DNA from: an uncultured Mycoplasmatota bacterium
GTDB lineage: Bacteria > Bacillota_I > Bacilli_A > RF39 > UBA660
Length of the DNA stretch: 63,008 bases
Direction: 5' to 3'
NCBI GenBank assembly: GCA_947576095.1
Contig: CANPPW010000003.1
Coordinates: 1-63,008 of the forward strand
Below the pieces are notes generated by a model, which was given only the letters and a program-made list of their open reading frames with translations, ran no database searches and was not told the origin of the DNA. Positions 474 to 44,002 of this stretch are shown piece by piece (the stretch's first letter is position 1; each line of letters opens with the position of its first letter). The position numbers were made by a program, and so were the translations under genes.

Positions 474-2903
474 CTAATTTTCCTCTTCATTAAATTCTTT
501 TTTTACAATGGCAACAGTGCTTACACGTTGCTCATCTTTTAAATTTATTAATTTTACGCCTTGTGCAACTCTACCCGTTGATGATATTTGATCAATTAAT
601 AATCTAATAATAATACCATTATCTGTTATAATCATTAAATCTTCATCACCATGTACAGCTTTAAAAGACACAATATTGCCGTTCTTTTCAGTAATATTAA
701 GTGCTTTTACACCTTTACTTCCTCTATGAGTCATTCGATATTCTTCTATTTTAGTTCTTTTACCATAACCTTTTTCCGTTACAACTAAAATTTCTTGTCC
801 AGAGGTTGCAATTTCCATTCCAACACAAATTCCATGATCTACATCAATTCCTTTAACACCTGCAGCTGTACGCCCCATTACTCTAATTTCATCTTCATTA
901 AAGTGAATCATACGTCCATTTGAGGTTGCAATTAATATTTTATTATTTCCCAAAGTTTTCTTAACTGATAATAACTCATCATTATCTTTTAATGTAATAG
1001 CTAATTTACCACTAGATCTAATATTATTAAATTCACTAATATCAGTACGTTTTACTAATCCATTTTGCGTACAAAATACAATATATTGAGATGTGTCATC
1101 ATTTTCTATTTTCAACATAGCACGCACTGTTTCTTCTTTTTCTAATGGTAATAAATTAACAATAGGTAATCCTTTAGATTGTCTATTATAAAGAGGAACT
1201 TCGTATCCTTTTATTCTATAGACTTTACCTTTGTTTGTAAAAAATAATAAATAATCATGTGTAGTCATTGAAATTAAATTTTCAACAAAATCTTCTTCAT
1301 GAGTAGTCATCCCTTTTATACCAACGCCACCTCTATTTTGTGTTTTATACGTTTCACTTAAGATGCGTTTAATATAGCCTTTATTTGTTAACGTAATTAC
1401 AATGTCTTCCACTGGGATTAAAGCTTCATCTTCTATATAATCTATAGCAGACATATCTATCTGAGTTTTTCTCTCATCACCATATTTATTTTTAATTTCT
1501 ATTAATTCCTCTTTTATTATATCTAAAATTCTATTTTCGTTTGCTAATATATCCCTTAAATCTGCAATTAAATCTCTTAATTGTTTCAATTGTTCTTCTA
1601 TCTTTTGTCTTTCTAAGCCTGTTAATCTACGAAGTTTCATTTCTAAAATAGCCTTGGCTTGAACTTCTGTTAAGGAAAATCTATTTACCAATTCATGAAT
1701 TGCGTTTTCATCATTAGATGATGCCTTTAATAACTTAATAATTTCATCAATATGATCTAGTGCAATTTTTAATCCCTCTAATATATGGGCCTGTGCTTCA
1801 GCTTTATCTAAATCAAATTTTGTTCTTCTATAAATAACTGTTCTTTGATGTTCGATATATTTTTCTAAAATTTCCTTTAAAGATAATGTCCTTGGTTTCT
1901 CATCTACTAAAGCTAAATTATTAATTCCATAAGTTGTCTGAATAGATGTATGTTTATATAAATTATTTAAAATAACATTCGAATTAGCATCTCTTCTAAG
2001 TTCTATTACAATTCGAATTCCATCTCTATTACTCTCATCTCGAATATCAGTAATCCCATCAATAACCTTATCACGCACTAAATCAGCTATTTTAGTAATT
2101 AATACTGATTTATTTACCATATATGGAATTTCTGTAATAATAATTTGATGTTTTCCATTTTTCATTTCTTCGATACTTGCTTTCGAACGAATTGTAATAA
2201 TTCCCTTACCCGTTTCATAAGCTTTTCGAATCCCACTATTTCCCAATATTGAAGCACCTGTTGGAAAATCTGGTCCCTTTATATATTCCATCAAATCTAA
2301 TACATTTAAATCAGGATTATCAATCAAAGCAATCGTTCCATCAATTACTTCAGCCAGATTATGTGGTGGCATATTGGTTGCCATACCTACCGCTATACCA
2401 GTAGTACCATTTACTAAAATATTAGGAAATCTAGAAGGAAGAACTTTAGGTTCTCTTTCTGTACCATCATAATTTGAAGTAAAATCAATTGTATTTTTAT
2501 TGATATCACGAACCAATTCCATACTCATTTTAGACATTCTTGCCTCTGTATAACGCATAGCTGCGGCTCCATCACCATCAATTGATCCAAAATTTCCATG
2601 TCCATCCACTAAAGTGTATCGATAAGAGAATGTTTGAGCCATACGTACAAGTGCTTCATAGATAGAAGAATCTCCATGTGGATGATATTTACCCATTACA
2701 TCTCCTACAATACGTGCACATTTTTTATGTTGTACAGACGATGTAGCACCCATATCATTCATTCCATATACAATTCTTCTTTGTACAGGTTTCAAGCCAT
2801 CTCTAACATCAGGAAGAGCACGTGCTACTATAACACTCATAGCATAGTCTAAAAAAGATTTTTGTATTGATTCGGTAAAAGGTAATTCTTGTAATTTATC
2901 CAT
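474..2903 (-). CDS. gyrA: DNA gyrase subunit A
   Basis: 809 aa. N-terminal [11 protein letters not shown] and [10 protein letters not shown] active-site region, C-terminal repeated beta-pinwheel-like segments, immediately downstream of gyrB. Confidence 0.97.
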
Positions 2904-2915
2904 TTCGTTTTCCCC

Positions 2916-4841
2916 CTATACATCTAAATTTTCTACAAACTTTGCATTCTTTTCGATAAATTCACGTCTTGGTTCTACCTCTTCACCCATTAAATCTGTT
3001 AAAACCTTATCAGCCATCATAGCATCATCCATTGTGATTTTCAAAAGAATTCTATTTTCAATATTCATAGTTGTATCCCAAAGTTCTTCAGCATCCATTT
3101 CACCTAACCCTTTATATCTACTAATTCTCATTTTGGTTGAATCAGGTAATTGTGCAACTATCTGATCACATTCCTCATCAGAATAAGCATAATATAATTT
3201 TTTATTATATTCTATTTTATATAAAGGAGGCTGAGCAGCATAAATATAGCCTTGTTCTACTAAAGGTTTGAAATAACGATAAAAGAATGTTAGTAATAAA
3301 ATACGAATATGGGAACCATCAACATCCGCATCGGTCATAATAACAATTTTATGATATCTAAGCTTAGATATATCAAACTCTTCTCCAATTCCAGTACCAA
3401 AAGCTGTAATCATGGACCGGATTTCATTATTTCCCAAAATTCTATCTAATCTTGCTTTTTCTACATTTAAAATTTTTCCTCTTAATGGTAGAATAGCCTG
3501 GGTTTTAGGGTTTCTACCAGATTTAGCTGAACCACCAGCTGAATCCCCTTCGACAATAAAAATTTCACATTCTTCTGCATTTTTTGATGAACAATCAGCT
3601 AATTTTCCAGGTAAAGATGTAACTTCAAGTACTGTTTTACGTCTTGTTAAATCACGGGCTTTTTTAGCTGCGACTCTTGCACGAGCAGCAGTCATTCCCT
3701 TTTCAACAATAATCTTAGCCGCATCAGGATTTTCTAGCAAGAATCTTTCAAATCCTTTACTAAACACGTCATCAGCTATTTTCCTTACTTCACTATTTCC
3801 CAATTTTGTTTTTGTCTGACCTTCAAATTGTGGATCTGGATGTTTGCAAGAAATAATCATAGTCAATCCTTCTCTTACATCATCTCCACTTAAAGATTCA
3901 TCATTATCCTTCAACATTTTATTATTTCTAGCATAATTATTAATGATTTTTGTAAGAGATCTTTTTACACCATCCTCATGAGTTCCACCTTCATAAGTAC
4001 TAATATTATTAGTAAAAGAATAAATATTTGAACTATAACCAGAATTATATTGAAGAGCTACCTCTATAGAAATTTTATCCTCTTCACCACTTAAATGAAT
4101 AATTTTCTCATGAATTGGTGTTTTATTTTTATTGAGCATTTCAACATATGCACTAATACCACCTTCATAAACGAAAATTTCCTTTTTCTTTTCTTCTGAT
4201 CTATCATCACACAAAATAATACGAAGACCTCTATTTAAAAAAGCCAATTCACGGATTCTTGTTTTTAAAGTTTCATAATCAAATACAGTTGTTTCCTTAA
4301 AAATCTCAGGATCTGGCTTAAAGGTAACTGTTGTTCCTGTACGATCTATAGAGCATGAATCTACCACTGCAAGTGGTTCTACAGTGTGTCCACCATTTTC
4401 AAATCTTATTTTATATACTTGACTATTCTGATAAACCTTTACCTCGACCCATTTACTTAACGCATTTACAACAGAAGCACCAACACCATGTAATCCACCA
4501 GATACTTTATAGCCACCACCACCAAATTTTCCACCAGCATGAAGTACAGTATAAACTGTTTCTACTGTTGATAAACCTGTTTTTTGATGAATTCCTGTTG
4601 GAATTCCACGTCCATCATCCTTTACAGTTACAGAGTTATCTGGATTAATAATAATCTCAATATCATCACAATATCCTGCTAATGCTTCATCAATTGCATT
4701 ATCAACAATTTCCCATACCAAATGGTGTAATCCTTTAGAACTAGTAGAACCAATATACATACCTGGTCTTTTTCGTACTGCCTCTAAACCTTCTAAAACT
4801 TGTATATCTGACGCATCATAATGTTCAATTTTTTCTTCCAT
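2916..4841 (-). CDS. gyrB: DNA gyrase subunit B
   Basis: 641 aa. GHKL ATPase motifs ([29 protein letters not shown]) and Toprim motifs [10 protein letters not shown] and [12 protein letters not shown]. Confidence 0.97.
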
Positions 4842-5945
4842 TTATATCACCTCTTCTTGTTTTATTATTTTTCCATTTTCTATTTGAATTAATTTAGCCT
4901 TTTTTAAAACTTCTTCTTTAATAGATGTCAAATCAGTCGTTGTGATAATTGCTTGTATATGATCTGATATATAATCAATTAGATTTTCTCTTTTCATGTA
5001 ATCTAATTCACTAAATACATCATCTAATAACAAAATAGGAGTTTCACCTTTATACCTTTTATATAACTCTATTTCAGCCAGTTTAAAAGCTAAAACCGCA
5101 GATCTTTGCTGCCCTTGTGAAGCATAAGAATTCATATCTTTATTTCCCAAGAAAAAAAGTAAATCATCTCGATGAGGTCCAAATAAGGTTTTTTTTTGCA
5201 ACCGTTCTTTTTGTTTTATCGTTTCGTAATATTTTTGCAAAATATCTAAATCATATGTATCTGTAAAATCTACATCTTCTGTTTTATAGAAAACCCTAAA
5301 ATCATGCATATGCATAATATGATAATAAATAGGTTCAACATATTCATTAATCCGTTCAATAAACCTATTTCTCATTTTATATAGCAATAAAGCCTTTTCT
5401 ATAAAATATTTTGTTAAAATACTAAAATAATTTTCATCAAAATAAGGTTGTTTTAAATATTCATTACGCATTTTTAACAATTTATTATAATCTGTTAATA
5501 CATTATAATAAACATTTTGTAACCCACTAATTTCTGTATTGATGAACTTTCTTCTTGTCGAAGGAGATCCTTTTACAATATCCAAATCCTCTGGATAAAA
5601 AATAATAACATCTAAATTAGAAATATAATCACTTATTTTTTTCAATAAATGTTCGTCGATTTTTAATTTTTTATGTTCTTTATTTAAAATAATCTCCATC
5701 TTTTTGGGAACAGTATTCGTTTGCAAGGTTCCAGTAATCTTTGCAAATGCCTCTTCATCTTTAATGAGAGCCATCTCCATTACACTTCTGTGAGATTTTG
5801 TATATCCTAATACATAAATACTTTCTAATAGATTGCTTTTACCTTGTCCATTTTCACCATATATTATATTCACTCTAGGATGAAAAGAAAGCGATAAAGA
5901 TCTATAATTTCGAAAGTTTACTATTTTTAGATCTTTTAAAATCAT
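4842..5945 (-). CDS. recF: DNA replication/repair protein RecF
   Basis: 367 aa. Walker A GENGQGKSNLLE, SMC-like signature SQGQQRS, Walker B LLLDDVFSELD. Canonical position between dnaN and gyrB. Confidence 0.93.
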   Translation of the reverse strand: MILKDLKIVNFRNYRSLSLSFHPRVNIIYGENGQGKSNLLESIYVLGYTKSHRSVMEMALIKDEEAFAKITGTLQTNTVPKKMEIILNKEHKKLKIDEHLLKKISDYISNLDVIIFYPEDLDIVKGSPSTRRKFINTEISGLQNVYYNVLTDYNKLLKMRNEYLKQPYFDENYFSILTKYFIEKALLLYKMRNRFIERINEYVEPIYYHIMHMHDFRVFYKTEDVDFTDTYDLDILQKYYETIKQKERLQKKTLFGPHRDDLLFFLGNKDMNSYASQGQQRSAVLAFKLAEIELYKRYKGETPILLLDDVFSELDYMKRENLIDYISDHIQAIITTTDLTSIKEEVLKKAKLIQIENGKIIKQEEVI

Positions 5946-6076
5946 AATCTGACCTCTTTCTATCCAAAATCGTTCAATATTTAACTTTTATATATGAGAA
6001 GTACTCCTATACCTATTTATCATTATATCACAAAAGAACAATAAAAGAAAAAAAATAAGCCATATTTTAGCTTATT

Positions 6077-6526
6077 TTATAAAAATTTTCGATGTCTTAA
6101 AATAGATTCTAGTCTAGTAGCTCTTAAAACTTGATTTTCTAAAGATCCATATGAAATATTAAGTTCTAAAGTTTCCCCATTTTTAAATGATACTAAAGAA
6201 TTTCTGTCATTTTTTAAATAGTTATTCACATGTTTTAAAGAAATCCATGTACAATTATCAAATCGCGGAGAACTAGTTGGAAAAAAAATTAAATTTTTTG
6301 TTTCTTCTACTATAATGGGTGCCTTATAACTAATTCCCATTAAAGCTTTTGTTCCCTCTTTTCTACCAATAAAAGAACTTCCAAAATATTTACAACTATG
6401 ATTGATAATTTCAGTTGTAGTCTTATTTACCTCAAACTCTCCATCCTCTTCTATAATCCTAGAATGATTATTTTGTAAAGGAATAATAGCAATTGTACTA
6501 GTATTAATTTCATAATTTTGTAACAT
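6077..6526 (-). CDS. comK: ComK-family competence transcription factor
   Basis: 149 aa, collinear by eye with B. subtilis ComK: ATIAVLP/STIAIIP, SC(R/K)(F/Y)FGSS, GRK.GT, PP/API(M/I)V, IF(L/F)FPT.S, W(I)S, FSNGKTMELPISY/FKNGETLELNISY, ENQV.R(T/A). Confidence 0.8.
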   Translation of the reverse strand: MLQNYEINTSTIAIIPLQNNHSRIIEEDGEFEVNKTTTEIINHSCKYFGSSFIGRKEGTKALMGISYKAPIIVEETKNLIFFPTSSPRFDNCTWISLKHVNNYLKNDRNSLVSFKNGETLELNISYGSLENQVLRATRLESILRHRKFL

Positions 6527-6668
6527 CTATCTCACCTCCCTCTACAGATAACTTTCGTCAAAGAAATCTGATTTCCTCTCTTATACAACAAAAAAATGTC
6601 GATATTTATCGAATTTTGTCAAAAAAGAGAAAAAAAAGAAAAAAGTTCTATGTTTCCTCTTTTCCTTT

Positions 6669-7790
6669 TTAGTATGTCTTAATAGGTAAAATTAATTGAA
6701 TTAATTGGTCATTATTAGGACTCTTTACAATAATTGGTTTTATTTCACTATTGAATAATAAAGTTACTTCCTCTGTTTCTAAAGTTTTAAGAGCCTCCAT
6801 CATATATTTTGAACTAAAAGATATATTAATATCTTCACCATTTTCTTTTGTTATACAAACTTTCTCTTCTACATTTCCTATTTCAGGTATATTAGATGAA
6901 ATTACAACCTCATTATCTTTACTTTGAAAGCGAATTGTATTTTTTTCAGATTCATTAGTTAATAAAGATGCCCTATCAATTGCACTATAAATATCATTTA
7001 ATTTTGTTTGAATATGAATTAAAAATTCACTAGGTATTAATTTTGATGTATCTGGATAGGTCCCATTAATTAAACTCGATAACATAATAATATTATTAAA
7101 TTTAAATATAATTTTATTATTAAAAATATGGAGTTCAATCTGGTCTTCCTCATTAATAAACATTTTTACAAGTTCACCTATATTTTTAGTTGGAATGGTA
7201 ACATTAATATCCTCAATAACATTTTCTTCAATTTTAATTGTTTTTTTAGCAAGACGATAAGAATCTGTAGCAGTACATTCCATAATATTTCCATTTATTT
7301 TAAAATTAATTCCTGTTAAAATGGGTCTCGTCTCCTGAGTCGACGTTGCAAAAGCAGTTTGCAAATAAATTGTTTTTAAAACTTTTTGAGTTAAAATGAT
7401 GGGATTTTTATGATCTTCTAAATCAATTTGTGGAAAATCACTGACTAAATTACAATTTAAATAAAATGATGAATTTTCTGTATATATATATAATCTAGAG
7501 TCTACAGCTTCTTCTATATTAATAATTGTATTAGGAAGTTTTCTAACAATATCATATATATATTTTCCTGATATAACCACTTCTCCTAATATATCAATTG
7601 TATCTATTTCTTTTTTATCTATAAAAGTTTTTATAGCAATATCGTTGTCTGTACTTATTAAATATAAACCATGTTCTGTTAATTCAAATTTAATACAATT
7701 TAAAATGGGTATTAAATTTTTACTTGATATTCCTTTTATTGCATAATTTAAATGTTCCATTAATATATTTTGTTTAATTTTTAATTTCAT
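6669..7790 (-). CDS. dnaN: DNA polymerase III beta sliding clamp
   Basis: 373 aa, three-domain clamp length, typical N-terminus (MKLKI...L...I..V.......PIL) and C-terminal LILPI(K)TY. Immediately downstream of dnaA. Confidence 0.93.
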   Translation of the reverse strand: MKLKIKQNILMEHLNYAIKGISSKNLIPILNCIKFELTEHGLYLISTDNDIAIKTFIDKKEIDTIDILGEVVISGKYIYDIVRKLPNTIINIEEAVDSRLYIYTENSSFYLNCNLVSDFPQIDLEDHKNPIILTQKVLKTIYLQTAFATSTQETRPILTGINFKINGNIMECTATDSYRLAKKTIKIEENVIEDINVTIPTKNIGELVKMFINEEDQIELHIFNNKIIFKFNNIIMLSSLINGTYPDTSKLIPSEFLIHIQTKLNDIYSAIDRASLLTNESEKNTIRFQSKDNEVVISSNIPEIGNVEEKVCITKENGEDINISFSSKYMMEALKTLETEEVTLLFNSEIKPIIVKSPNNDQLIQLILPIKTY

Positions 7791-7837
7791 AAATCCTCCT
7801 TATTTAATATACTTTATAAATTTATTATTATTATAGA

Positions 7838-7947
7838 TGTGGAAAATGTGGATAATTTTTAGATTTCCTTTTATTTTTAAGGAAAAAAAGAGTTTGAATA
7901 ATGTCGAAAACTGTTTTTTTATCCACTGTGTATTTCTTTTATCCACA
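7838..7947. promoter_or_regulatory. DnaA-box cluster between dnaA and dnaN (downstream half of a bipartite oriC)
   Basis: 9-mers TGTGGAAAA 7838-7846, TGTGGATAA 7847-7855 (perfect TTATCCACA on the other strand), TTATCCACT 7919-7927 and TTATCCACA 7939-7947, all in an AT-rich spacer. Confidence 0.8.
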
Positions 7948-9297
7948 TTATTTAATTTGTTCTATAATTTTTTCAATTTGAATTTCAAGATTTTTATCTT
8001 TTTCTATTTCTTTTTTTATTTTATCAACTGAGTGCATTACAGTGGTATGATCTTTTCCACCAAAAGCAATCCCAATTTTAGGCAAGGTTTCTTCTAATTT
8101 TACTCTACATATATACATTGCGATTTGTCTTGGGACAGCAATTTTAGCTACTCTTCTCTTACTTTTTAAATCCTCCACTGTAATATTATAATTACTGGCA
8201 ATTAATTGTTGTACTTGATCAATTTTATTTTTTGCAGTGACGGTTTTTACAAAATAATCTCTTAATGCTTCTATCGCAAGGTCTATAGTGATTTCTGAAC
8301 TATTCATAATGGTTGCATAAGCCATAATTCTTGTGATAGACCCTTCCAGTTTTCTAATATCACTTATACAATTACTAGCTATATATTCTTTTACTTCTTG
8401 TGGAAAATTATTTGCCATTGGATTTCCTTCAATTTTTTTATCAATAATATCAATACGTAGTTTGAAATCAGGTGGAAGAATATCGGTTGTAATCCCCCAA
8501 TTAAATCTGGTTTGTAAACGTTGCTCTAATTTATTTAAATCATCGGGTGAACGGTCTGATGAAATAATAATTTGCTTATTATTACCATATAATTCATTGA
8601 ATGTATTAAAAAATTCTTGTTGGGCACTATTGGCGATTTGGAGATACTGTATATCATCAATCATTAATACATCAATGTCTCTATATTTTTTTTTAAATTG
8701 TTGCACATCATCTCTATTATCTGTAATTTCACTTTTTCGATATAATTCAATGAAGTCGTTAACGAATTGTTCACTTGTTACATATAAAACCCTTTTTTTA
8801 CTATTTTTAACAATATAGTTTCCAATCGCATGCATTAAATGTGTTTTCCCTAATCCACTATTTCCATAAATAAATAATGGATTATACATCATTCCTGGTT
8901 TTTCTGCAACTGCTAAAGCTGTTGTTCTTGCAAATTTATTACTCTGCCCTACTATAAAATTTTCAAATTGGTATTGGGATTTTAAATTTGTTTCAAGTTG
9001 GATGGATGGAATCCCAATTGTATCTGTATTAATTTCAATATTTTTTTCTACTTCTTCTTCAGTTAAATATTCAAATGAAAAATTAGAACCAGTAATATCT
9101 GTAAAAATACTTTCAATTAGATCACTATAATTTTCTTTTAGAAATTTTTTATGTACATGCATAGGAACTACCACTTTAGCTGTTGTTTCATTTAATTCAA
9201 TGAGTTTGGTATCCATAAACCATGTTTCATAAATCATAGAATTGGTATTTTCTTTAATTTCATTTAGAAATTTTCCCCATATACTATTGATGTCCAT
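7948..9297 (-). CDS. dnaA: Chromosomal replication initiator DnaA
   Basis: 449 aa. AAA+ Walker A GNSGLGKTHL, Walker B LMIDDIQ, C-terminal DNA-binding domain (GGKDHTTVMHS). Confidence 0.97.
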   Translation of the reverse strand: MDINSIWGKFLNEIKENTNSMIYETWFMDTKLIELNETTAKVVVPMHVHKKFLKENYSDLIESIFTDITGSNFSFEYLTEEEVEKNIEINTDTIGIPSIQLETNLKSQYQFENFIVGQSNKFARTTALAVAEKPGMMYNPLFIYGNSGLGKTHLMHAIGNYIVKNSKKRVLYVTSEQFVNDFIELYRKSEITDNRDDVQQFKKKYRDIDVLMIDDIQYLQIANSAQQEFFNTFNELYGNNKQIIISSDRSPDDLNKLEQRLQTRFNWGITTDILPPDFKLRIDIIDKKIEGNPMANNFPQEVKEYIASNCISDIRKLEGSITRIMAYATIMNSSEITIDLAIEALRDYFVKTVTAKNKIDQVQQLIASNYNITVEDLKSKRRVAKIAVPRQIAMYICRVKLEETLPKIGIAFGGKDHTTVMHSVDKIKKEIEKDKNLEIQIEKIIEQIK

Positions 9298-9352
9298 AAA
9301 GCACCCCCATTCCAGAGATCAGGAAAGTTACATACTTATTTTAATGCAAAAA

Positions 9353-9681
9353 TGTGGAAAACACAAGAAAAAACAAGGAAAAAAAGATATGAAATATCAA
9401 TCCACAAACTTATCCACTTGAAAAAGCTATAAAAACATTAATAAAAATATAGTTTTGCACAAAAATGTGGAAAACTATATTCACATAAAAAAAAGAGGGT
9501 GACAAAATATCTAACAAAAATGTGGAAAACATATAAACATTAAGTAAAATCCTATAAAGTTTTTCACATTTCTAAATATAATATCCACATTTTTTATGTG
9601 AATAAAAAATTTTCAATTTTTTTTCCTGTGGAAATTTTGTCGAAAAAAATCGAATAATAAAAAAATTATTTTTTTTCCACA
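9353..9681. promoter_or_regulatory. DnaA-box cluster upstream of dnaA (oriC / dnaA promoter region)
   Basis: TTWTCCACA-like 9-mers at 9353-9361, 9398-9406, 9410-9418, 9466-9474, 9521-9529, 9581-9589, 9627-9635 and 9673-9681, plus a weaker one at 9560-9568. The flanks are extremely AT-rich. Gene orientation flips here. Confidence 0.8.
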
Positions 9682-9782
9682 TATTAAGAAGTAAATCATT
9701 CTTAACATATCTAATTTTGCATAAATATATAATTAGTAAAATAAATTGAAACATACAACTAAATCAATTCCAGTAGTTTTTG

Positions 9783-9811
9783 TTGACAAAACAAATATTT
9801 ATCTATATAAT
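9783..9811 (+). promoter_or_regulatory. Consensus sigma-A type promoter for rpmH-rnpA
   Basis: TTGACA (9783-9788), a 17-nt spacer, then TATAAT (9806-9811), about 40 nt upstream of the rpmH start. Confidence 0.7.
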
Positions 9812-9853
9812 TATGAAAGCAAAGCGAAATAAAAAGCATAGGAGGTGTTTATA

Positions 9854-9976
9854 ATGAAAAGAACATATCAACCCAATAATAGAAGAAAGGCAAAAAAGCA
9901 AGGTTTTTTTGCTCGTATGAAATCAGGTATTATTACTCGTCGTAGAAAAAAAGGACGTAAGGCTTTAATACATTAA
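9854..9976 (+). CDS. rpmH: 50S ribosomal protein L34 (short, 40 codons)
   Basis: Absent from the ORF track because it is under 60 aa. GGAGG RBS at 9841-9845. Translation is [40 protein letters not shown]. Canonical position upstream of rnpA. Confidence 0.9.
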
Positions 9977-9982
9977 TAAGAA

Positions 9983-10008
9983 CCACTGAATCTTCAGTGG
10001 ATTTTTTT
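9983..10008 (+). terminator. Stem-loop plus T-tract between rpmH and rnpA
   Basis: ccactgaa tc ttcagtgg followed by a, then ttttttt. Confidence 0.5.
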
Positions 10009-10025
10009 GATATGGAGGATTTAAA

Positions 10026-10373
10026 GTGAAAAAAATCAATATTATAAAAGAGAATAGGGAATATGGCAGAATTATTGAAAAATATAAATCTTTTAGATAT
10101 GGTGATTTTATTATATACATAGAAAAAAATACAAATGATGTCTATAAATTTGGTTTATCTGTTGGTAAAAAGGTAGGAAATGCAGTTATGCGAAATAAAA
10201 TAAAAAGAAGACTTAAAAGTATTTTAGATGAAAGGGTCTATCAAAATGGATTTAATTGTATTATAATAGTAAAGAAAGCAATAGTAGAAAAATCTTTTTT
10301 AGAAATGAAAGAGGATCTATTGTATATAATAAATAAATTGAATATTACAAAAGGAGACGAAAATGAAAAATAA
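10026..10373 (+). CDS. rnpA: RNase P protein component
   Basis: 115 aa, GTG start. Basic motif FGLSVGKKVGNAVMRNKIKRRLK. Follows rpmH. Confidence 0.9.
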   Translation: MKKINIIKENREYGRIIEKYKSFRYGDFIIYIEKNTNDVYKFGLSVGKKVGNAVMRNKIKRRLKSILDERVYQNGFNCIIIVKKAIVEKSFLEMKEDLLYIINKLNITKGDENEK

Positions 10374-36922: not shown

Positions 36923-37746
36923 AATATTCTCCAAAAAATATGAAAGAAAACTTAACAAGTAACGATTTTTTATTTAAGAAGAAATTTGGACAAAATTTTA
37001 TTATAGATGAAAATATAATTGATGCTATTACATTAAAATCTTCGATTGATAAGGATACACTTGTTATTGAGATAGGTCCAGGAGCAGGTTCTCTTACTTA
37101 TAAACTGTGTTCTAAAGCAGCCTTTGTGCTTTGTTATGAAATTGATAAAGAATTAAAAAATGTTTTAGAAGAAAACTTAAATTCTTGTGAAAATTATGAA
37201 ATTGTTTACGAAGATTTTTTAAAAGCAAATGTAAAAAGTAAATTAAAGGAATACCCTTATTCTAAAATATATGTAGTAGCAAATTTACCTTATTATATAA
37301 CAACACCTATCATTATAAAAATTATTGAAGATCAAATTCCAGTCCAAAAAATGATATTAATGGTACAAAAAGAAGTAGGGAACCGGTTTAGAGCCCAACC
37401 TGGAACGAAAGAGTATAATTCTCTCACTATTTTTCTAAATTATTACTTTTCTATCAAAAAAATATTAGATGTAAATCGAAATGTATTTTTACCAAAACCG
37501 AATGTAGATTCTATTGTAGTATCTTTTACACGTAAAGAGTTGTCTAATAAAGTACATAACGAATCGTTATTTTTCAAACTCATCCGTGATAGTTTTAGAC
37601 AAAAAAGAAAAACACTTCGTAATAATTTAAAAGAGTATGATTTAAAAAAAATAGAATCTATATTAAACGAAAAGGGATATGATTTATCTGTAAGGGCAGA
37701 AAATTTACCAATGGAAGTTTTTATAGATATTGCGAATGCATTATAA
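36919..37746 (+). CDS. rsmA: 16S rRNA (adenine1518/1519-N6)-dimethyltransferase
   Basis: 275 aa. KKFGQNFI, EIGPGAGSLT, ANLPYYITTPI. Confidence 0.94.
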   Translation: MKYSPKNMKENLTSNDFLFKKKFGQNFIIDENIIDAITLKSSIDKDTLVIEIGPGAGSLTYKLCSKAAFVLCYEIDKELKNVLEENLNSCENYEIVYEDFLKANVKSKLKEYPYSKIYVVANLPYYITTPIIIKIIEDQIPVQKMILMVQKEVGNRFRAQPGTKEYNSLTIFLNYYFSIKKILDVNRNVFLPKPNVDSIVVSFTRKELSNKVHNESLFFKLIRDSFRQKRKTLRNNLKEYDLKKIESILNEKGYDLSVRAENLPMEVFIDIANAL

Positions 37747-37816
37747 ATAGTTTTTCTATTATAATCGAAGATGAATATAAATTATCCAGGGCTTTGCTTC
37801 GAAGAAAAATATGATA

Positions 37817-37954
37817 CTAAGGTATATAAGTAAGAATGTCATCTGTTAATTGGATTGATATTTGATTTATACTTTTTCTTACATTTAAACCATTTTCCAT
37901 ATTTTTTCTTTCTTCATATGAAAGATGACGATAATTTTTATAATAAAATTCCTT
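37817..37954 (-). pseudogene. IS30-family transposase N-terminal remnant
   Basis: The minus strand reads ...KEFYYKNYRHLSYEERKNMENGLNVRKSINQISIQLTDDILTYIP*. This resembles the IS30 HTH lead (kHLtleeR..Ie.gL..g.S...IA..L). No catalytic domain follows. Confidence 0.45.
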
Positions 37955-38073
37955 CTTCAAATAACAAACAAATTGCTTGACAAATATTATATACTATTAC
38001 AAAACTTACTGCACAACTATTGTGCACTTTCAATTTTAACTTATATATGATTATTCTTTCCATCAGACTATAA

Positions 38074-38108
38074 GGAAAAAGACTGTTGTTTCTTTTTCTC
38101 AACAGTCT
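38074..38108 (-). terminator. Terminator of the minus-strand ORF 38139-38753
   Basis: agactgttg (38080-38088) pairs with caacagtct (38100-38108). A-run 38076-80 gives a T-run on the minus strand. Confidence 0.6.
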
Positions 38109-38138
38109 GATATTTTATATAATAAAATGTTTTAAATA

Positions 38139-38753
38139 TTAATTTATATCACGTAAAGATAAAATTTTTTGGTTAGCTTGAGATATTTTGTGCTTATAGT
38201 GGAACAGCTGATATTTTTGTGTCTCTACAAGCGTATAATCAACTACCTTTTGTGTCTCTATAAACTGAAATTGATTTAAATACTCTTTTACAACTTCTAT
38301 ATATTCAGGGTATTCTGGCTCAGAATTTTTAAACAAAAACCGAAAAATGCATTCTTGATATAGATATTCATAAAGATGAGCAAAACAAAATCTCTCCACA
38401 TGTAGAAAGGATATCCTATAACTGAGTGCTAGGAATTTTTGAATAATAATAGGATCCTTATAAACTATAACTATACCAGGCGTCCAACCTATTTTAGGAT
38501 ATCCTAAAGTATCATAATCATATTCAAAACAATGAAACCCTTTAATACTCTTCGCCACTCTTTCACTTGGATTGACTCTATAAGGAGTAAATGGTTTTGG
38601 ATCATCTACATCTTTAAAAGTAGCTCCTAGACGTAATGATGCCTCATTAATTCACTCCATGAATTTGATTGGATCATATATGACCTGATTTACATACATC
38701 TCATATTCAGACTTGTATAAATAAAATTCTTCCCTTTTCATATCTTTCTCCAT
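38139..38753 (-). pseudogene. Hypothetical gene interrupted by one in-frame TGA
   Basis: The minus frame is open from ATG 38753 (MEKDMKREEFYLYKSEYEMYVNQVIYDPIKFME) through TGA at 38652-38654 into INEASLRLGATFKDVDDPKPF...ERVAKSIKGFH... (the track ORF). No recognisable domain. Confidence 0.5.
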
Positions 38754-39005
38754 AAAGACATTTTCCTTCCTTTATAAAATAAGAAATATTCCTAATCCCA
38801 TTTATAATAAAACACATCTGTGTATGAAACAAACTTATTTTCAACAAAAAATAACTTTATTTCATCAACTGAAAAAGTCTTTTGTTCAGCATTTGTTATA
38901 TTCAACATTTTCCTTCTTTTAACTACTTTCTATGATAAGTATCTCTTATCATAAATTATGATTTTTCATAGAAAGAGAAAATGTTAAATATGTCTTTAAT
39001 CGAAA

Positions 39006-39032
39006 CAATAACAGTTCAATGAACTGTTATTG
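39006..39032. repeat. 27-bp perfect palindrome
   Basis: caataacagttc aat gaactgttattg, in decayed non-coding DNA. Confidence 0.9.
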
Positions 39033-39232
39033 TAAGCAGTACCATCAATCATAATTAATCTCCTCCTTTTAGGAGAAGGGATCCTTAAAGGATGTGATTT
39101 GTAATCTTTATTAAAACATTTATGTTTGATAGATTTAACCTAATGTTTCTTTTTATATAGTGATTTATAGAATGGATACCTTCTAACTTTAAGATTGTCT
39201 TCTTTAACTATTTTTATCATCATCTTAAGATT

Positions 39233-39559
39233 TCAAATAACATCTTCATGATAGATATTTTGAAATTGTGATATTGCATATTTATTCTTAAAGTTCTTAA
39301 TAAATCCAATTTCTTTGTTGGAAGGTGAATTATTAGAAGGTTTATTTGTTAAACCGTGAACTAAAATAGAATTAATATCCTTTTCTTTTAATGTAACCGA
39401 TAATCTATATATTTGTGATTTATTATAAACAGTAAGAGAACCAATTTGAGAATAAGAGAAATCTTTTAATCCATTTAATTTTTCTTGAAAAAGTTTTAAT
39501 GCATATTCTTTATTATGTATATAAAAATATCTCTTTTCTGGTGGGATATTATATAACAT
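39233..39559 (-). mobile_element. Truncated ISNCY/IS1202-like transposase (N-terminal HTH part only)
   Basis: 108-aa ORF with ...SQIYRLSVTLKEKDINSILVHGLTNKPSNNSPSNKEIGFIKNFKNKY.... This resembles the H-G-n-x-G-r-k-P-x-N lead of that family. No DDE core follows, only stop-riddled sequence. Confidence 0.5.
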
Positions 39560-39681
39560 AAGTTTGGTAACATTTTAAAAATGGATTAACAAAAAATAAA
39601 AATTATTGCTAAATAATTAGTTTTGTTTTATAACAAACATTGTTTTTGAGGACTAATGTATCAAAATTAAGGAGGAAAATT

Positions 39682-41406
39682 ATGGAAGATGGATTTATTG
39701 CCTATGTTGGGACAGAAATAGAAGAAGAAGAAATAAAGAATTTATTAGAAACACTTTGTGCAGATAAAATGGAATGGGAAAGAGATGCAACCTATCAATC
39801 TCGTATAATAAAAGGTGCGGGTGCTATTTTTGGTCAAGTCATTGATTGCGATACTTTTCGACAAAAAGTAACTTTACCTGCTTTATATAATAATTTGCTA
39901 TATGTAGCAAGTTATGATTATTCTGCATTTATGAAGATTGAAGATGACTTTGTTGGTGACTATGATTTCGATTATGAATACCCTCATATATTAATTCCAG
40001 CTCTATTAAAGGATTATGATACAAAGGCCTTTCATTTGTTAGAATCAGTAGGTGTAACATGTGCATTTGCTAGTTATGATAGAAAAACAAGATCCTTTAC
40101 TGCTGCTAAAATTGGTGATTATAAATTTTTTTATGGATATACAAAACAAAATCATGAGATAATCTTTTCTGATAATGCCAAAATAATACGAGAATTATGT
40201 GGATCTGCAAAAGACTTCCCAGATGATTGTTTTTATAGATATGGTACATTTTATACATTTAAAAAACCACAAGAAGAAATAATATACGTAAATCCAGAGG
40301 ATTTTGATCAAAAACCATTTGAAAATACCACATTAATAGCAAATATTGAAAAAACATTTAATGAATCTTTAGCAGATTTAGAGCTACATAAAAAAGTTGA
40401 TGAATTTATAGATCAAAACTTGAGTATTGAAGTAAAAAAAAGATTATTAAAAATAATAAAACAAGAAATTCAAAAATATAATATTCAAGGAAAAGTTCAA
40501 GAACAAATGACTCAGGTTTCACAACAACTTGGAGAAAAGATCACTGAAGCAGTTGCAAAATCATTAGATAAAATATCTATTCCTACAATTCATATTATTA
40601 AACTTGGAGAAACAGAATTAGGTAGAACAAATGCAGAATTGTTTCATGAAAAATTTGAGGAAGTTTTATCTTTAGTTCAATTAGATGAGCCAGTTATGTT
40701 AATTGGACCTACAGGATCTGGTAAAAACCAAGCTATTAGCCAAATAGCAAGAGCATTAGGTTTACACATGTATTATACAAATAATGCATCAAACGAATTT
40801 AAATTAACTGGATTTATTGATGCAGGTGGTACTTACAGAGATACTGAGTTTTATAAAGCATTTAAAAATGGTGGTATATTCTTTTTAGACGAAATTGATT
40901 GCTCTGATCCCTCAGCATTAATAGTAATTAATTCAGCACTTGCAAATGGGTATATGGCTTTTCCACATGAAACAATAGATAGACATCCTGATTTTAGAAT
41001 AGTTGCAGCTGCGAATACTTGGGGAAAAGGATCAGATTTACAATATGTTGGAAGAACTGCTTTAGATGATGCGACACTTGATAGATTTGATAATGTTTTC
41101 TTTGACTATGATAGAAATCTAGAAAAAGGATTATATCCTAGTGAACAAGTATTAAGATTTATGTGGTCATTTAGAGATGCCATTGAAACTGCTAAAATGC
41201 TACATAATGTATCAACTCGTGGTATAGGTAAAGTTTATAAAAAAGAAATAAATGGAATTCCTACAGAAACAATATTAAGAGTGAATGTAATTAGAAATTT
41301 AGGGCAAGATGATTTAAATATTATTTTAGGAAATATGCAAAATATAGATTCAAATAATAAATACTTTGAAACAGCAAAAAGCTTAAAATTAGTTAATAGT
41401 AGGTAA
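39682..41406 (+). CDS. CobS/MoxR-type (AAA_5) ATPase fused to an unusual ~330-aa N-terminal region
   Basis: AAGGAGG RBS before the ATG at 39682. C-terminal ~250 aa carry Walker A GPTGSGKN, Walker B IFFLDEID, then RIVAAANTWGKGSDLQYVGRTALDDATLDRF, which is CobS-like. N-terminal ~200 aa resemble an AsnB-type Ntn amidotransferase fold without the Cys nucleophile. A coiled-coil linker lies between. Confidence 0.75.
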   Translation: MEDGFIAYVGTEIEEEEIKNLLETLCADKMEWERDATYQSRIIKGAGAIFGQVIDCDTFRQKVTLPALYNNLLYVASYDYSAFMKIEDDFVGDYDFDYEYPHILIPALLKDYDTKAFHLLESVGVTCAFASYDRKTRSFTAAKIGDYKFFYGYTKQNHEIIFSDNAKIIRELCGSAKDFPDDCFYRYGTFYTFKKPQEEIIYVNPEDFDQKPFENTTLIANIEKTFNESLADLELHKKVDEFIDQNLSIEVKKRLLKIIKQEIQKYNIQGKVQEQMTQVSQQLGEKITEAVAKSLDKISIPTIHIIKLGETELGRTNAELFHEKFEEVLSLVQLDEPVMLIGPTGSGKNQAISQIARALGLHMYYTNNASNEFKLTGFIDAGGTYRDTEFYKAFKNGGIFFLDEIDCSDPSALIVINSALANGYMAFPHETIDRHPDFRIVAAANTWGKGSDLQYVGRTALDDATLDRFDNVFFDYDRNLEKGLYPSEQVLRFMWSFRDAIETAKMLHNVSTRGIGKVYKKEINGIPTETILRVNVIRNLGQDDLNIILGNMQNIDSNNKYFETAKSLKLVNSR

Positions 41407-41411
41407 TAATT

Positions 41412-42302
41412 ATGTATAAGTACTATGAAAAAAATGGATATCAAATAATGTATTATAGATTTCATTCTATATTTGAATTCGTAGAATATCTAACTAATAC
41501 ACCTATAAAAAAAGATATTTTTCATGATCCATCTAGTATTTCTGGTGATTATAGTTTTTGTAAAACTCAAAGTTTTGAAGAAGCAATAGAACTTATAAAA
41601 TATGGTTATCATGAAAATTTTGATAAATTCATGGAATTAAAAGTAAAATTGGAAAAATATATTCAACTTTCAAGTAAAAGAAATAAACAATATAATTTTT
41701 ATGTTGGATATGTTCCAGATGTTAAAGCATATTTAGAAGGTAGTCCATTATCTATGTTAAATAAAACTAACAATGTTAGGAAAAAAATTGATATATATAT
41801 GAATTCTTCATTTTGTGGTGAATCTTCAACAGAAGCAATTTTCAACAGAGGGGCAATTGTGTTATCTTTAGTAGAAATCTTAGAAAGTTTAGGATTTAAT
41901 GTTGATTTTCATTTGTTGGAAATGTCCACAATTGATCGTAAAATGCATTTTAGTGATTTTATTTTAAAAAAAGAGAATGAAAGATTGAATCTCCAAAAAT
42001 TGTATTTTCCGCTTTGTCATCCTTCTTGGATTAGAAGATTAAACTGCAGATTAATAGAAGTAACACCCGATATTACTAGTTCTTGGAGTCGTGGTTATGG
42101 CATTCCAAGTAAACTAGAAACCATGAAACAAATAATTGAGTTAAAAAGTAATGATATTATTATACCGACAATCGATGAACTAGGTATAAGAGGACATGAT
42201 ATTATCGATGATACAAATAGTTTATTTAATTATATAAATGCATTATCTGAAAAGGATTTTGAATTAAAACCTGTAAAAAAGTTAAAAATTTATAAATGGT
42301 AA
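41412..42302 (+). CDS. Uncharacterised partner of the AAA+ ATPase (possible degenerate vWA/Rossmann-like core)
   Basis: 296 aa, starting 5 nt after the ATPase stop. The segment KKIDIYMNSSFCGESSTEAIFNRGAIVLSLVEILESLGFNVDF looks like strand, loop, helix, strand at the position where vWA proteins carry DxSxS. Confidence 0.6.
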   Translation: MYKYYEKNGYQIMYYRFHSIFEFVEYLTNTPIKKDIFHDPSSISGDYSFCKTQSFEEAIELIKYGYHENFDKFMELKVKLEKYIQLSSKRNKQYNFYVGYVPDVKAYLEGSPLSMLNKTNNVRKKIDIYMNSSFCGESSTEAIFNRGAIVLSLVEILESLGFNVDFHLLEMSTIDRKMHFSDFILKKENERLNLQKLYFPLCHPSWIRRLNCRLIEVTPDITSSWSRGYGIPSKLETMKQIIELKSNDIIIPTIDELGIRGHDIIDDTNSLFNYINALSEKDFELKPVKKLKIYKW

Positions 42303-42552
42303 AAATATTCGGCCTAATTAATTTAGGTATTATTCTTCTTTACTTTTTAAGTGAAATATGAAAAATGGCCTATTTGCAGGTATTTTCTTTGAACTTAAAA
42401 AATTCAAATATTAATTAATATAGTCCTTTGGGAAATTTAAAAATTTATTTCTATCTATGTAAACAAAGGGTTTTGTAGTAATAATTATAGATCATATAAT
42501 ATGTAAAAATAATTTTCATATAAAAAGTGAACTGAATTCAATTTCTTATACC

Positions 42553-42578
42553 AAAGGAATGATATTTAGTTCCTTTTT
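42553..42578 (+). terminator. Possible terminator downstream of the cassette
   Basis: aaaggaa (42553-59) pairs with ttccttt (42570-76), running into ttttt. Confidence 0.35.
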
Positions 42579-42682
42579 AATATTATAAATTATTTAAAAT
42601 AATAGTGATTTAATGAAAAAATATCGTTGAAGCCATATCCTTTTTTTGACAAAAAAAATAAAAATATTAGTGTACAGTAATA

Positions 42683-44002
42683 ATGGTGAAACATATGTTA
42701 GAAATTAGTAATAAAATTCTTTGGGCTGCATCTACATCTCTTATCATTTTATCAGGATTGTATTTTACTTTTAAACTACGTTTTGTGCAATTTCATTTTA
42801 GACAAATGTTTAAAAGTTTATTTCAAAAAGAAAAAAAAGGAATTCAGCCTTATCAAACCTTAATGATGGTCTTAGCTGGTAGAATTGGGGTAGGGAGTAT
42901 AGCAGGTGTGGCTCTTGCGATTCATATAGGAGGAATTGGATCTGTTTTTTGGATGTGGGTCATTGCTTTTGTATCAGCGGCAATTTCTTTTGCTGAAACA
43001 GAACTAGGGATTGTTTATAAAGAGAAAGATGGGGTTGATGTATACAAAGGAGGCCCTAGTTATTATTTAAATAAGGGATTACATTTGAAATGGTTAGGAT
43101 CTTTATATGCTATATTAATTTTAGTAAGTTATATTTTTGGTTTCTTAGGAATTCAGGCAAATACCATTACAAAATCTTTAACAGAATTGATCCCTATTTC
43201 CCCTATTTTAATTGGACTAGGAATTGTTTTTTGTACATCCTTTGTTATTTTTGGTGGAATCAAAAAAATAGCCAATACAGCATCAGCCCTTGTACCTTTT
43301 ATGATGTTTATTTATATTGGAGTAGCCCTTTTTATCTGTTTTAGAAATATCCAAATGATACCATCTATTTTTTCGCAAATTATAAAAGCAGCATTTCATG
43401 TAAAACCCTTTTTTGGCGGATTTTTGGCGATGGTTATTACAGGTGTGCAAAGAGGTATTTTCTCGAATGAGGCAGGTCTTGGCACAGGAGCAATCGCATC
43501 TTCTACAGTTGTATCTGATGATGCTGCAAGTCAGGGTTATTTACAAATGATAGGTGTTTATATTACAACTCTTCTCATTTGTAGTTCTACAGCTATTATT
43601 ATTTTAACATCTCCTTATCAAAATCTTGTTTTACAAGATATTAATGGAATTGAAATAACCCAGTTTGCTTTTGAGTATCACTTAGGACATTTAGGAAGCT
43701 ATCTGATTTTTTTCTCGATTATTTTGTTTTCTTTTTCTACTATTTTAACAGGATATTATGATGGGGAATCAAGTTTAAAGTATTTTTTTAAAACGGTCAA
43801 AAAAAGATATCTCTATATATTAAAATTTGTAACCTTGTTCATTCTTTTTATCGGTTGTCTTATTTCTTCTACAGTTCTTTGGAATATTGTAGATATTTTT
43901 ATTGCATTACTTGCCTTTATTAATATTTATGCCGTAATGAAACTAAAACATATTGTTATAGAAGAGTATACATTATATAAAACGAAAAAACATAGAAATT
44001 AA
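42683..44002 (+). CDS. Alanine/glycine:cation symporter (AGCS family)
   Basis: 439 aa, multi-TM. AGRIGVGSIAGVA, GGPSYYL and GVQRGIFSNEAGLGTGAIA motifs. Confidence 0.88.
   Translation: MVKHMLEISNKILWAASTSLIILSGLYFTFKLRFVQFHFRQMFKSLFQKEKKGIQPYQTLMMVLAGRIGVGSIAGVALAIHIGGIGSVFWMWVIAFVSAAISFAETELGIVYKEKDGVDVYKGGPSYYLNKGLHLKWLGSLYAILILVSYIFGFLGIQANTITKSLTELIPISPILIGLGIVFCTSFVIFGGIKKIANTASALVPFMMFIYIGVALFICFRNIQMIPSIFSQIIKAAFHVKPFFGGFLAMVITGVQRGIFSNEAGLGTGAIASSTVVSDDAASQGYLQMIGVYITTLLICSSTAIIILTSPYQNLVLQDINGIEITQFAFEYHLGHLGSYLIFFSIILFSFSTILTGYYDGESSLKYFFKTVKKRYLYILKFVTLFILFIGCLISSTVLWNIVDIFIALLAFINIYAVMKLKHIVIEEYTLYKTKKHRN

Follow-up and report, generated by a model that had tools for sequence, protein, structure and literature searches.

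What does a tightly spaced pair of genes, one of which joins the fold of an amidotransferase to an AAA+ ATPase, do in an uncultured Mycoplasmatota bacterium? The pair, called gene 1 and gene 2 below, lies on the plus strand of a 63,008-nucleotide stretch (contig CANPPW010000003.1 of assembly GCA_947576095.1, positions 1 to 63,008), the whole of which we refer to as the window. A first-pass annotation, made from the letters alone, had read the pair as a candidate novel system in which an amidotransferase-like domain and a CobS-type ATPase act with a partner of no recognized family, and had suggested a role in defense, anti-defense, or the maintenance of a mobile element. The evidence described here leads us to favor, with confidence a little better than even, a phage-related remodeling ATPase of the MoxR class that acts through a DUF7192 adaptor, a loop of which would sit in the pore of the ATPase ring, with the pseudo-amidotransferase serving as a client or ligand module. 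The genes and the start signal of the first are as follows.

39669..39675, plus strand: Shine-Dalgarno sequence AAGGAGG of gene 1, 6 nt 5' of the ATG, read from the sequence
39682..41406, plus strand: gene 1, encoding a pseudo-amidotransferase domain, a helical linker, and an AAA_5 ATPase (open reading frame, Pfam, homologues)
41412..42302, plus strand: gene 2, encoding a DUF7192 protein of 296 residues from the ATG at 41412 (open reading frame, Pfam PF23822, phrog_1909)

Gene 1 runs from the ATG at 39682 to a TAA at 41404-41406 and encodes 574 residues on the plus strand. An alternative in-frame TTG at 39640 would add 14 residues; we prefer the ATG because both the ribosome-binding site (RBS) and the alignment of homologues favor it. 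The gap between the stop codon of gene 1 and the ATG of gene 2 is 5 nt, and gene 2 is translationally coupled to gene 1. The list of open reading frames (ORFs) and the sequence bear out the ORF, start, RBS, and spacing proposed earlier, and the peptide strings quoted at that time all occur in the translations of the two genes.

The ATPase and its DUF7192 partner

What kind of motor does gene 1 encode? Its C-terminal half carries the following features.

40582..41403, plus strand: AAA+ module with lid, AAA_5 / MoxR-CobS-midasin class, residues ~301 to 574 (Pfam, PDB profile, phrog_249)
40705..40728, plus strand: Walker A, GPTGSGKN, residues 342 to 349 (invariant in 37 homologues)
40768..40854, plus strand: segment between Walker A and Walker B, residues 363 to 391, MYYTNNASNEFKLTGFIDAGGTYRDTEFY, the presumed pore-lining helix-2 insert (near-invariant in homologues)
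40879..40893, plus strand: Walker B, FFLDE, residues 400 to 404 (F400, L402, D403, and E404 invariant)

Pfam AAA_5 matches residues 337 to 469 (E 7.6e-14; 52.3 bits against a cut-off of 22), and the sensor-1 residue N445 together with R458 and R468 is invariant across the 37 homologues. In the PDB, a profile of the family matches the AAA modules of midasin (E 5e-27, with several modules summed), CobS (E 8e-5, the best bacterial single-domain match), and CbbQ/NorQ (E 5e-3). A phage family, phrog_249, annotated as “porphyrin biosynthesis” (i.e., CobS-like), covers residues 214 to 515 (E 3e-53). The most conserved stretch of the ATPase, residues 361 to 480, is 91 to 97% conserved per column and takes in the helix-2 insert, which, to judge from the structures of CobS and NorQ, presumably lines the pore. 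These signatures mark the product of gene 1 as a clade-7 AAA+ ATPase, MoxR/CobS/midasin in class and intact in its motifs.

Could the pair then be a genuine cobaltochelatase (CobS/CobT), or another chaperone for the insertion of a metal cofactor? The annotation of phrog_249 and the PDB match to CobS point in that direction, and the closest characterized pairs of a MoxR ATPase with a von Willebrand factor A (vWA) protein, namely CobST, NorQD, and CbbQO, serve the activation of metal centers or enzymes. The CobS/CobT systems of bacteria, cyanophages, and archaeal viruses (cobST) also share with our pair a motor of the AAA_5 class, presumably hexameric in our pair as well, and an adjacent adaptor gene; outside the DUF7192 family, the fold class that comes nearest to gene 2 is that of the CobT/vWA proteins. 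However, the CobS equivalog model TIGR01650 gives gene 1 only 19.6 bits against a cut-off of 558.55. Because this model fails, the “CobS-type” label names the right class and the wrong family: the class is upheld by Pfam AAA_5 and the PDB profiles, whereas membership in the CobS family is not. Nor is the partner a CobT; at 296 residues it has neither the M48C-like N-terminal domain nor the MIDAS (metal ion-dependent adhesion site), and the CobT-like protein of cyanophages is of about 740 residues. The helix-2 insert of the ATPases paired with DUF7192 is unlike that of cyanophage CobS, neither a CobN-like gene nor a metalloenzyme gene recurs near the pair in the 77 loci compared, and the hosts are small-genome gut Bacilli. 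We consider a chelatase or cofactor-insertion role very improbable.

The partner, for which no family had been recognized, does in fact have one. Gene 2 matches Pfam PF23822 (DUF7192) over residues 6 to 256 of 296 (E 6e-28; 98.4 bits against a cut-off of 27) and the phage family phrog_1909 (E 2e-33). Its two regions of note are these.

41688..41756, plus strand: DUF7192 signature loop, residues 93 to 115, QYNFYVGYVPDVKAYLEGSPLSM, a candidate pore finger (conservation; finger by analogy with NorD and CobT)
41775..42191, plus strand: DUF7192 alpha/beta core, residues ~122 to 260, weakly vWA/CobT-like and without a MIDAS (Foldseek)

The loop is the most conserved stretch of the family. In the alignment of gene 2, residues Q93, N95, Y97, G99, P102, D103, K105, L108 to G110, and P112 to M115 are invariant; when the phage members are included, G99 and P112 remain invariant and V104, G110, and M115 are at least 90% conserved. 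An AlphaFold2 (AF2) model of the monomer is good except at residues 85 to 121 (predicted local distance difference test [pLDDT] of 80 and predicted template modeling score of 0.78 overall), and the loop, at a pLDDT below 50, falls in the one internal region that AF2 cannot place. When the model is searched against the PDB with Foldseek, the top match is NorD's vWA domain in its complex with NorQ (9qh6_G; E 2e-3, probability 0.97, template modeling [TM] score 0.2), followed by factor B, the A1 domain of von Willebrand factor, integrin I domains, Ku80, and the MIDAS domain of midasin, all of them vWA folds. In a fold search of BFVD, the first 12 matches are phage DUF7192 proteins (E 3e-13 to 8e-7), and CobT-like or vWA phage proteins come next.

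Both families are also found together in phages. The phage ATPases match the C-terminal half of gene 1 only, never its N-terminal domain, at 27 to 45% identity (661 to 747 records), and come from Kayvirus, Listeria A511-like phages, mycobacteriophages, and cyanophage CobS. By Pfam, ATPase and DUF7192 genes are adjacent in Kayvirus Sb-1 (orf029/orf028), A511 (gp158/gp159), and mycobacteriophage Rumpelstiltskin (gp107/gp106), and they are likewise adjacent in Enterococcus phage vB_CECAV_04 and Clostridium phage CS266P3. The phage pair (phrog_249 and phrog_1909) thus shares with ours both families, their adjacency, and usually the same order and tight coupling, with an identity of 37 to 45% for the ATPase and 30 to 34% for the partner; it also shares the KLTGFIDAGG motif of the helix-2 insert and the loop motif of DUF7192. 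It differs in that the phage ATPases lack the pseudo-amidotransferase domain and in that the window pair lies in a chromosome and has no phage genes as neighbors. By sequence, the window pair is related to a pair carried by many phages of Gram-positive hosts, and it belongs to a broad, uncharacterized AAA_5 plus DUF7192 family common to phages and bacteria.

How does this family stand to the CobS/CobT genes of cyanophages? All DUF7192-paired ATPases, those of phages included, carry the short motif E(F/Y)KLTGFIDAGG in the segment that separates Walker A from Walker B, and the CobS of cyanophage S-PM2 does not; because of this we regard the DUF7192-paired ATPases as a distinct subfamily with an adaptor of its own. 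The S-PM2 CobS pairs instead with a 740-residue CobT-like “peptidase” (locus L082, 899-3121), which is reported to be a misannotated CobT (PMC8651126). Pfam gives that protein no match at an E value of 0.01 or better; current models thus cover the CobT-like proteins of cyanophages poorly as well. Phage cobST has been interpreted as a means to hijack the CobN of the host (PMC8651126) and as a MoxR-vWA chaperone for virion assembly (PMC7824862). The first-pass annotation had named a match to a characterized phage CobS/CobT module as an outcome that would count against novelty; the pair does map to a phage module, but that module is itself uncharacterized. Our full-text literature searches found no paper on DUF7192, on the phage ATPase plus DUF7192 pair (the Kayvirus AAA ATPase included), or on its function, and phage copies are routinely mislabeled as “porphyrin biosynthesis.”

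Is the window pair a peculiarity of one chromosome? Full-length homologues of gene 1 (46 to 71% identity, 99% coverage, 575 to 620 residues) fall into more than 100 clusters, on contigs of up to 257 kb, and those of gene 2 also form more than 100 clusters, at 55 to 87% identity. Among 185,579 species genomes, sampled at one genome per species, 62 loci were found. Most hosts are gut metagenome-assembled genomes (MAGs) labeled Bacilli or “Tenericutes” (“Ca. Faecisoma,” “Ca. Caccenecus,” “Ca. Coprovivens,” and Mycoplasma sp. CAG:472), and further hosts belong to Eggerthellaceae, Gordonibacter, Coprobacillaceae, and a Clostridium sp. DUF7192 lies directly downstream of the ATPase in nearly all loci of this set that are uncut; in a few it is found 1 to 2.5 kb upstream instead. 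When 897 ORFs from 77 loci were clustered, 72 of the loci contained the ATPase, 70 contained DUF7192, and 8 contained the next most frequent family; no third conserved gene was found around the pair. One locus (L035, 10061-13408) has a second, divergent ATPase and DUF7192-like pair 2.3 kb downstream. The proposed coupling of the two genes is upheld by this co-occurrence and by their adjacency in all phage loci examined: the ATPase and DUF7192 form an obligate, self-contained two-gene operon. The idea of an unrecognized architecture limited to one islet, on the other hand, does not survive the finding of more than 100 full-length clusters and of a partner already listed in Pfam and PHROG.

Such a scattered distribution raises the question of whether the pair is a module of antiphage defense or abortive infection, or of phage-derived superinfection exclusion, in which detection of a phage product by the two proteins would lead to the arrest of an essential process. 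Its spread is patchy; its place in the genome changes from each lineage to the next; Bacilli and Eggerthellaceae, which belong to different phyla, share it at about 70% identity of the ATPase; and it has homologues in phages. Some neighbors are of a mobile or defense-like kind (resolvases with Fic, DUF1016 with an integrase, GmrSD_N, and the insertion sequence [IS] remnant of the window). However, the surroundings, which differ from locus to locus, are mostly housekeeping genes, e.g., rpoBC with tRNA synthetases and ClpB; addAB with glmS; dxs with engA; fpg, pyk, polA, and polC; and, in Eggerthellaceae, a pyrophosphatase with an aminotransferase. PADLOC-DB v2.0.0 gives only a marginal match for gene 1 (AbiLi, E 0.005, 14 bits) and none for gene 2, neither protein carries a recognizable effector domain (nuclease, protease, TIR, or pore-former), and the 91 to 97% conservation per column in the ATPase would be unusual for conflict genes. 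The composition profile makes the GC content of the pair indistinguishable from that of its flanks, and no plasmid carries gene 2. The role in defense, anti-defense, or element maintenance suggested by the first-pass annotation thus has no positive evidence from any of these sources, and we judge a defense or exclusion module to be distinctly unlikely.

The N-terminal domain and its linker

What sets the bacterial form of the pair apart is the region in front of the ATPase, which comprises two features.

39682..40281, plus strand: class-II/N-terminal nucleophile (Ntn) glutamine-amidotransferase fold of the AsnB type, apparently catalytically dead, residues 1 to ~200 (AF2, Foldseek, hhalign)
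40294..40581, plus strand: K/E/Q-rich helical linker, residues ~205 to 300 (AF2 helices, gene 1 alignment, phrog_249)

An AsnB-type fold had been proposed for the first 200 or so residues, and three lines of evidence agree with this. Pfam DUF3700, a relative of the class-II glutamine amidotransferases, matches residues 124 to 203 just above its threshold (27.8 bits against a cut-off of 27). An AF2 model built with the 37 homologues has a pLDDT of about 90 over residues 1 to 195, and Foldseek places Escherichia coli AsnB (1ct9) at the top of its PDB matches (E 3e-10, probability 1.0, ~200 columns), followed by human ASNS, TsnB9, GlmS, beta-lactam synthetase, carbapenam synthetase, and PurF. Finally, hhalign aligns the profile of the domain with AsnB-like sequences, drawn from an exhaustive search with the domain itself, over 186 columns (probability 99.7%, E 1e-25). 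The domain thus shares with the glutaminase domain of AsnB a four-layer Ntn fold and a clear homology of profiles.

Is it still an enzyme? The nucleophilic Cys of the AsnB-like profile aligns to D3 of gene 1, and a Cys at position 2 was found in 0 of 120 gene 1 homologues, whose N-terminal length varies; the missing nucleophile noted earlier is therefore real. In the same hhalign alignment, the arginine of RGPD, the Asn-Gly oxyanion hole (N-G-E), and the Asp of the pocket are all replaced or deleted. Because every catalytic residue is lost, we regard the domain as a pseudo-enzyme, that is, as a domain of the AsnB-type fold that is, by its residues, catalytically dead. Beta-lactam synthetase and carbapenam synthetase (CarA), whose copies of the domain are inactive, likewise lack the Cys nucleophile. 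The domain differs from AsnB in having lost all residues of the glutamine pocket and in being fused to an AAA+ ATPase rather than to an ATP-pyrophosphatase synthetase domain. Full-text literature searches found no relevant paper on a combination of DUF3700 with AAA or of MoxR with an Ntn amidotransferase.

The domain is absent from phages and from some bacteria, and where present it comes in several arrangements. Three loci (L048, L051, and L054) have tandem N-terminal domains, which bring the ATPases to 772 to 861 residues, and a reversed gene order with DUF7192 upstream. In another (L025, 8619-9269), the domain is a separate 216-residue gene just downstream of DUF7192, identical to the homologue P0250, and L038 (7806-8293) has a separate gene in a like arrangement. 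Since it can be fused, tandemly duplicated, or separate within the same operon, we see the domain as a movable module of the system; in its fused, dead AsnB-like form, it is what distinguishes the pair in bacteria.

Between the domain and the ATPase, AF2 predicts with moderate confidence that residues 216 to 297 are helical, in keeping with the coiled-coil linker suggested earlier. Here the window protein departs from its relatives: a linker segment of about 27 residues (consensus ...LLFNDFxSAKNLLDGLNELLxxITD), two columns of which are at least 90% conserved across homologues, is missing from it (alignment columns ~283 to 311; window ~40290-40310, between residues ~205 and 212). The gap is no assembly error, because the same protein occurs, identical, on 6 contigs.

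Might the pair be without function, left behind when a prophage or mobile element decayed? The internal deletion would fit such a view, as would the IS remnant directly upstream and the existence of phage relatives. Yet neither ORF is broken, the RBS is strong, and the two genes are tightly coupled; strong purifying selection acts on the full-length homologues, of which there are more than 100 clusters; neither the window nor the other loci examined have phage genes adjacent to the pair; and an identical protein recurs on the 6 contigs. We find it hard to credit that the pair is a mere relic.

A proposed mechanism and hints of a client

The observations above are consistent with a model that borrows its central step from characterized MoxR-class systems. 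In NorQD, a finger of the vWA domain of NorD penetrates the pore of NorQ and contacts the helix-2 inserts (PMC13036017), and in CobST, six helix-2 inserts encircle a shaft of CobT (bioRxiv 10.64898/2026.07.21.739949). We propose the DUF7192 loop as a pore finger because no part of the protein is more conserved and it is nevertheless unplaced in the monomer, because the insert segment of the ATPase is equally conserved, and because NorQD and CobST provide the precedent. In this model, the ATPase would form a hexameric ring, as its class and analogy suggest, and DUF7192 would dock on the ring as a reduced, MIDAS-less vWA/CobT-like adaptor. We posit that loop 93 to 115 would enter the central pore and touch the helix-2-insert segment, residues 363 to 391. 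By analogy, ATP hydrolysis would then pull or twist the adaptor and so remodel its client, a protein or complex that would be held by the globular core of DUF7192. The N-terminal domain, on a helical arm of about 100 residues, may serve as a peripheral module that recruits the client or senses a ligand.

How does this compare with the known pairs? NorQ/NorD, CbbQ/CbbO, RavA/ViaA, and ATV p618/p892 share the logic of a MoxR-class ATPase with an adaptor. The vWA domain of NorQ-complexed NorD is the top PDB fold match of gene 2, and the finger-in-pore mechanism offers a model for the conserved loop. These systems differ in that no client gene (such as those for nitric oxide reductase or Rubisco) lies near window-type pairs in the 77 loci, in that the fold likeness is weak (TM score ~0.2) and DUF7192 has no MIDAS, and in that the N-terminal pseudo-enzyme domain has no counterpart among them. 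The LARA domain of RavA offers a loose analogy to that domain.

Several points weigh against the model. The pore-finger role is pure analogy. Gene 2 has no PDB fold match at E below 1e-3 by Foldseek, and no vWA match was returned for it by Pfam, NCBIfam, or PDB sequence searches; PDB profile searches with two DUF7192 alignments gave nothing or chance matches (MIC60, E 0.24). The MIDAS motif DxSxS is absent from DUF7192 in the window, chromosomal, and phage members alike: after the strand at residues 125 to 131, the window protein has N131-S-S, the chromosomal homologues have N-(S/T/A), and the phage members have nothing conserved. The description of gene 2 as a degenerate vWA-like partner is thus reasonable, in that the NorD vWA domain and the CobT/vWA proteins of phages come nearest to it in fold outside its family, but weakly supported, because the fold matches are weak, sequence profiles find no relative of solved structure, and the MIDAS is absent. 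For the ATPase, the AF2 model of full-length gene 1 has a pLDDT below 50 over the AAA core, residues 320 to 476 (window ~40640-41110), the likely cause being that the 37-sequence alignment is nearly invariant there. To these may be added the missing linker segment, the lack of literature on DUF7192, and the lack, over the 77 loci, of any recurrent neighbor indicating a client.

What, then, might the client be? One clue lies at the C terminus. The acidic tip DD(D/E)LPF, which in form matches the C-terminal tip motif of the single-stranded DNA-binding protein (SSB) of Firmicutes, is carried on an extension of 15 to 25 residues by 14 of 120 gene 1 homologues (P0002, P0004, P0012, P0015, P0022 to P0027, P0029 to P0031, and P0033) and by 1 of 120 gene 2 homologues (P0171); the 14 all fall in the clade that is closest to the window. 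Genes for a nucleotide kinase and a DNA polymerase are found near the Enterococcus phage copy, and the Kayvirus copy has a nucleotide kinase, MazG, and an RNA ligase nearby. Because of the SSB-like tips and the phage copies among genes of nucleotide metabolism and replication, we weakly favor a nucleic acid-related client; these hints point to nucleic acid or replication machinery rather than metal-cofactor insertion. The proteins of the window themselves carry no such tip, which counts against the proposal as well.

Taken further, these hints suggest a remodeler tied to replication or repair, acting on SSB-interacting or replisome proteins, i.e., a replication accessory of phages domesticated by the host. 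The tips and the nucleotide and nucleic acid genes beside the Enterococcus phage and Kayvirus copies speak for it, as do the placement of the cyanophage S-PM2 CobS/CobT genes between gp46 and gp45/gp44 and the presence of several chromosomal copies near addAB, polA/polC, fpg, or ung. But proximity to repair genes may be due to chance in small, gene-dense genomes, no LexA (Cheo) box was found in 58 distinct upstream regions (where shared 9-mers are only clade specific), no DNA-binding domain was detected in the Pfam search, and the window proteins are tipless. We regard a dedicated replication or repair function as doubtful. A bolder conjecture, to which we give similarly low credence, is that in gut Mollicute-like Bacilli and Eggerthellaceae a domesticated phage motor and a dead AsnB glutaminase domain, added as a sensor or client hook, make up an unrecognized three-module machine, working on the SSB interactome or replisome or else as a phage-sensing conflict system of a new kind, and that its phage counterpart performs a conserved task, so far unrecognized, in Kayvirus, in Listeria A511/P100-like phages, and in mycobacteriophages.

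Why should such a pair matter? Phages used or studied for therapy and biocontrol (Staphylococcus Kayvirus and Listeria A511-like phages, together with mycobacteriophages) carry the AAA_5 plus DUF7192 pair. That the pair works autonomously, outside any phage, is shown by its bacterial form, and the pseudo-enzyme domain recruited there provides a handle for finding the client or ligand. If the loop does act as a pore finger, the adaptor-in-pore mechanism of NorQD and CobST would extend to a minimal adaptor without a MIDAS.

The IS remnant and other features of the window

The pair is flanked by rsmA and an alanine symporter gene. Neither a riboswitch nor a leader came up when 37700-42750 was scanned with Rfam; the promoter scan was uninformative, with 22 promoter-like sites against 28 expected in AT-rich DNA, and the sole terminator-like hairpin falls within gene 1. 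Is the locus scarred by an IS, as had been proposed? One feature upstream of the pair indicates so.

39149..39559, minus strand: truncated remnant of an IS OrfA (the ORF itself spans 39233-39559; 66% identity to a 128-residue OrfA by tblastn)

An intact relative (L083), located between rpoB and rplL in another MAG, consists of a 128-residue protein and a 271-residue protein with a DDE-type integrase signature, ANTPQAKGKVEKWNNTIQNRL. The DDE ORF is absent from the window, as is a second copy of the remnant. The remnant has no Pfam match, and its family has no Pfam model; its homologues are mostly on very short contigs. The reading of the locus as scarred is therefore partly right, in the form of a truncated OrfA (an N-terminal fragment) upstream of the pair, but no other locus has the pair as cargo of an IS. 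Farther upstream, a 47-residue ORF at 37817-37960 on the minus strand (YRHLSYEERKNMENGL...) presumably resembles a helix-turn-helix of the IS30 type, and we list it as a candidate.

Two observations concern the window apart from the pair. A 29-nt near-perfect palindrome lies at 39005-39033, in a gene-poor stretch upstream of the IS remnant. Before about 9.3 kb, all ORFs of at least 150 residues (window 474-10363) are on the minus strand except 8333-8818, a plus-strand ORF that overlaps the minus-strand ORF 7948-9297; past about 10.4 kb, nearly all ORFs of at least 150 residues are on the plus strand. Because the coding strand switches there, a replication origin is suggested near 9.3 to 10.4 kb.

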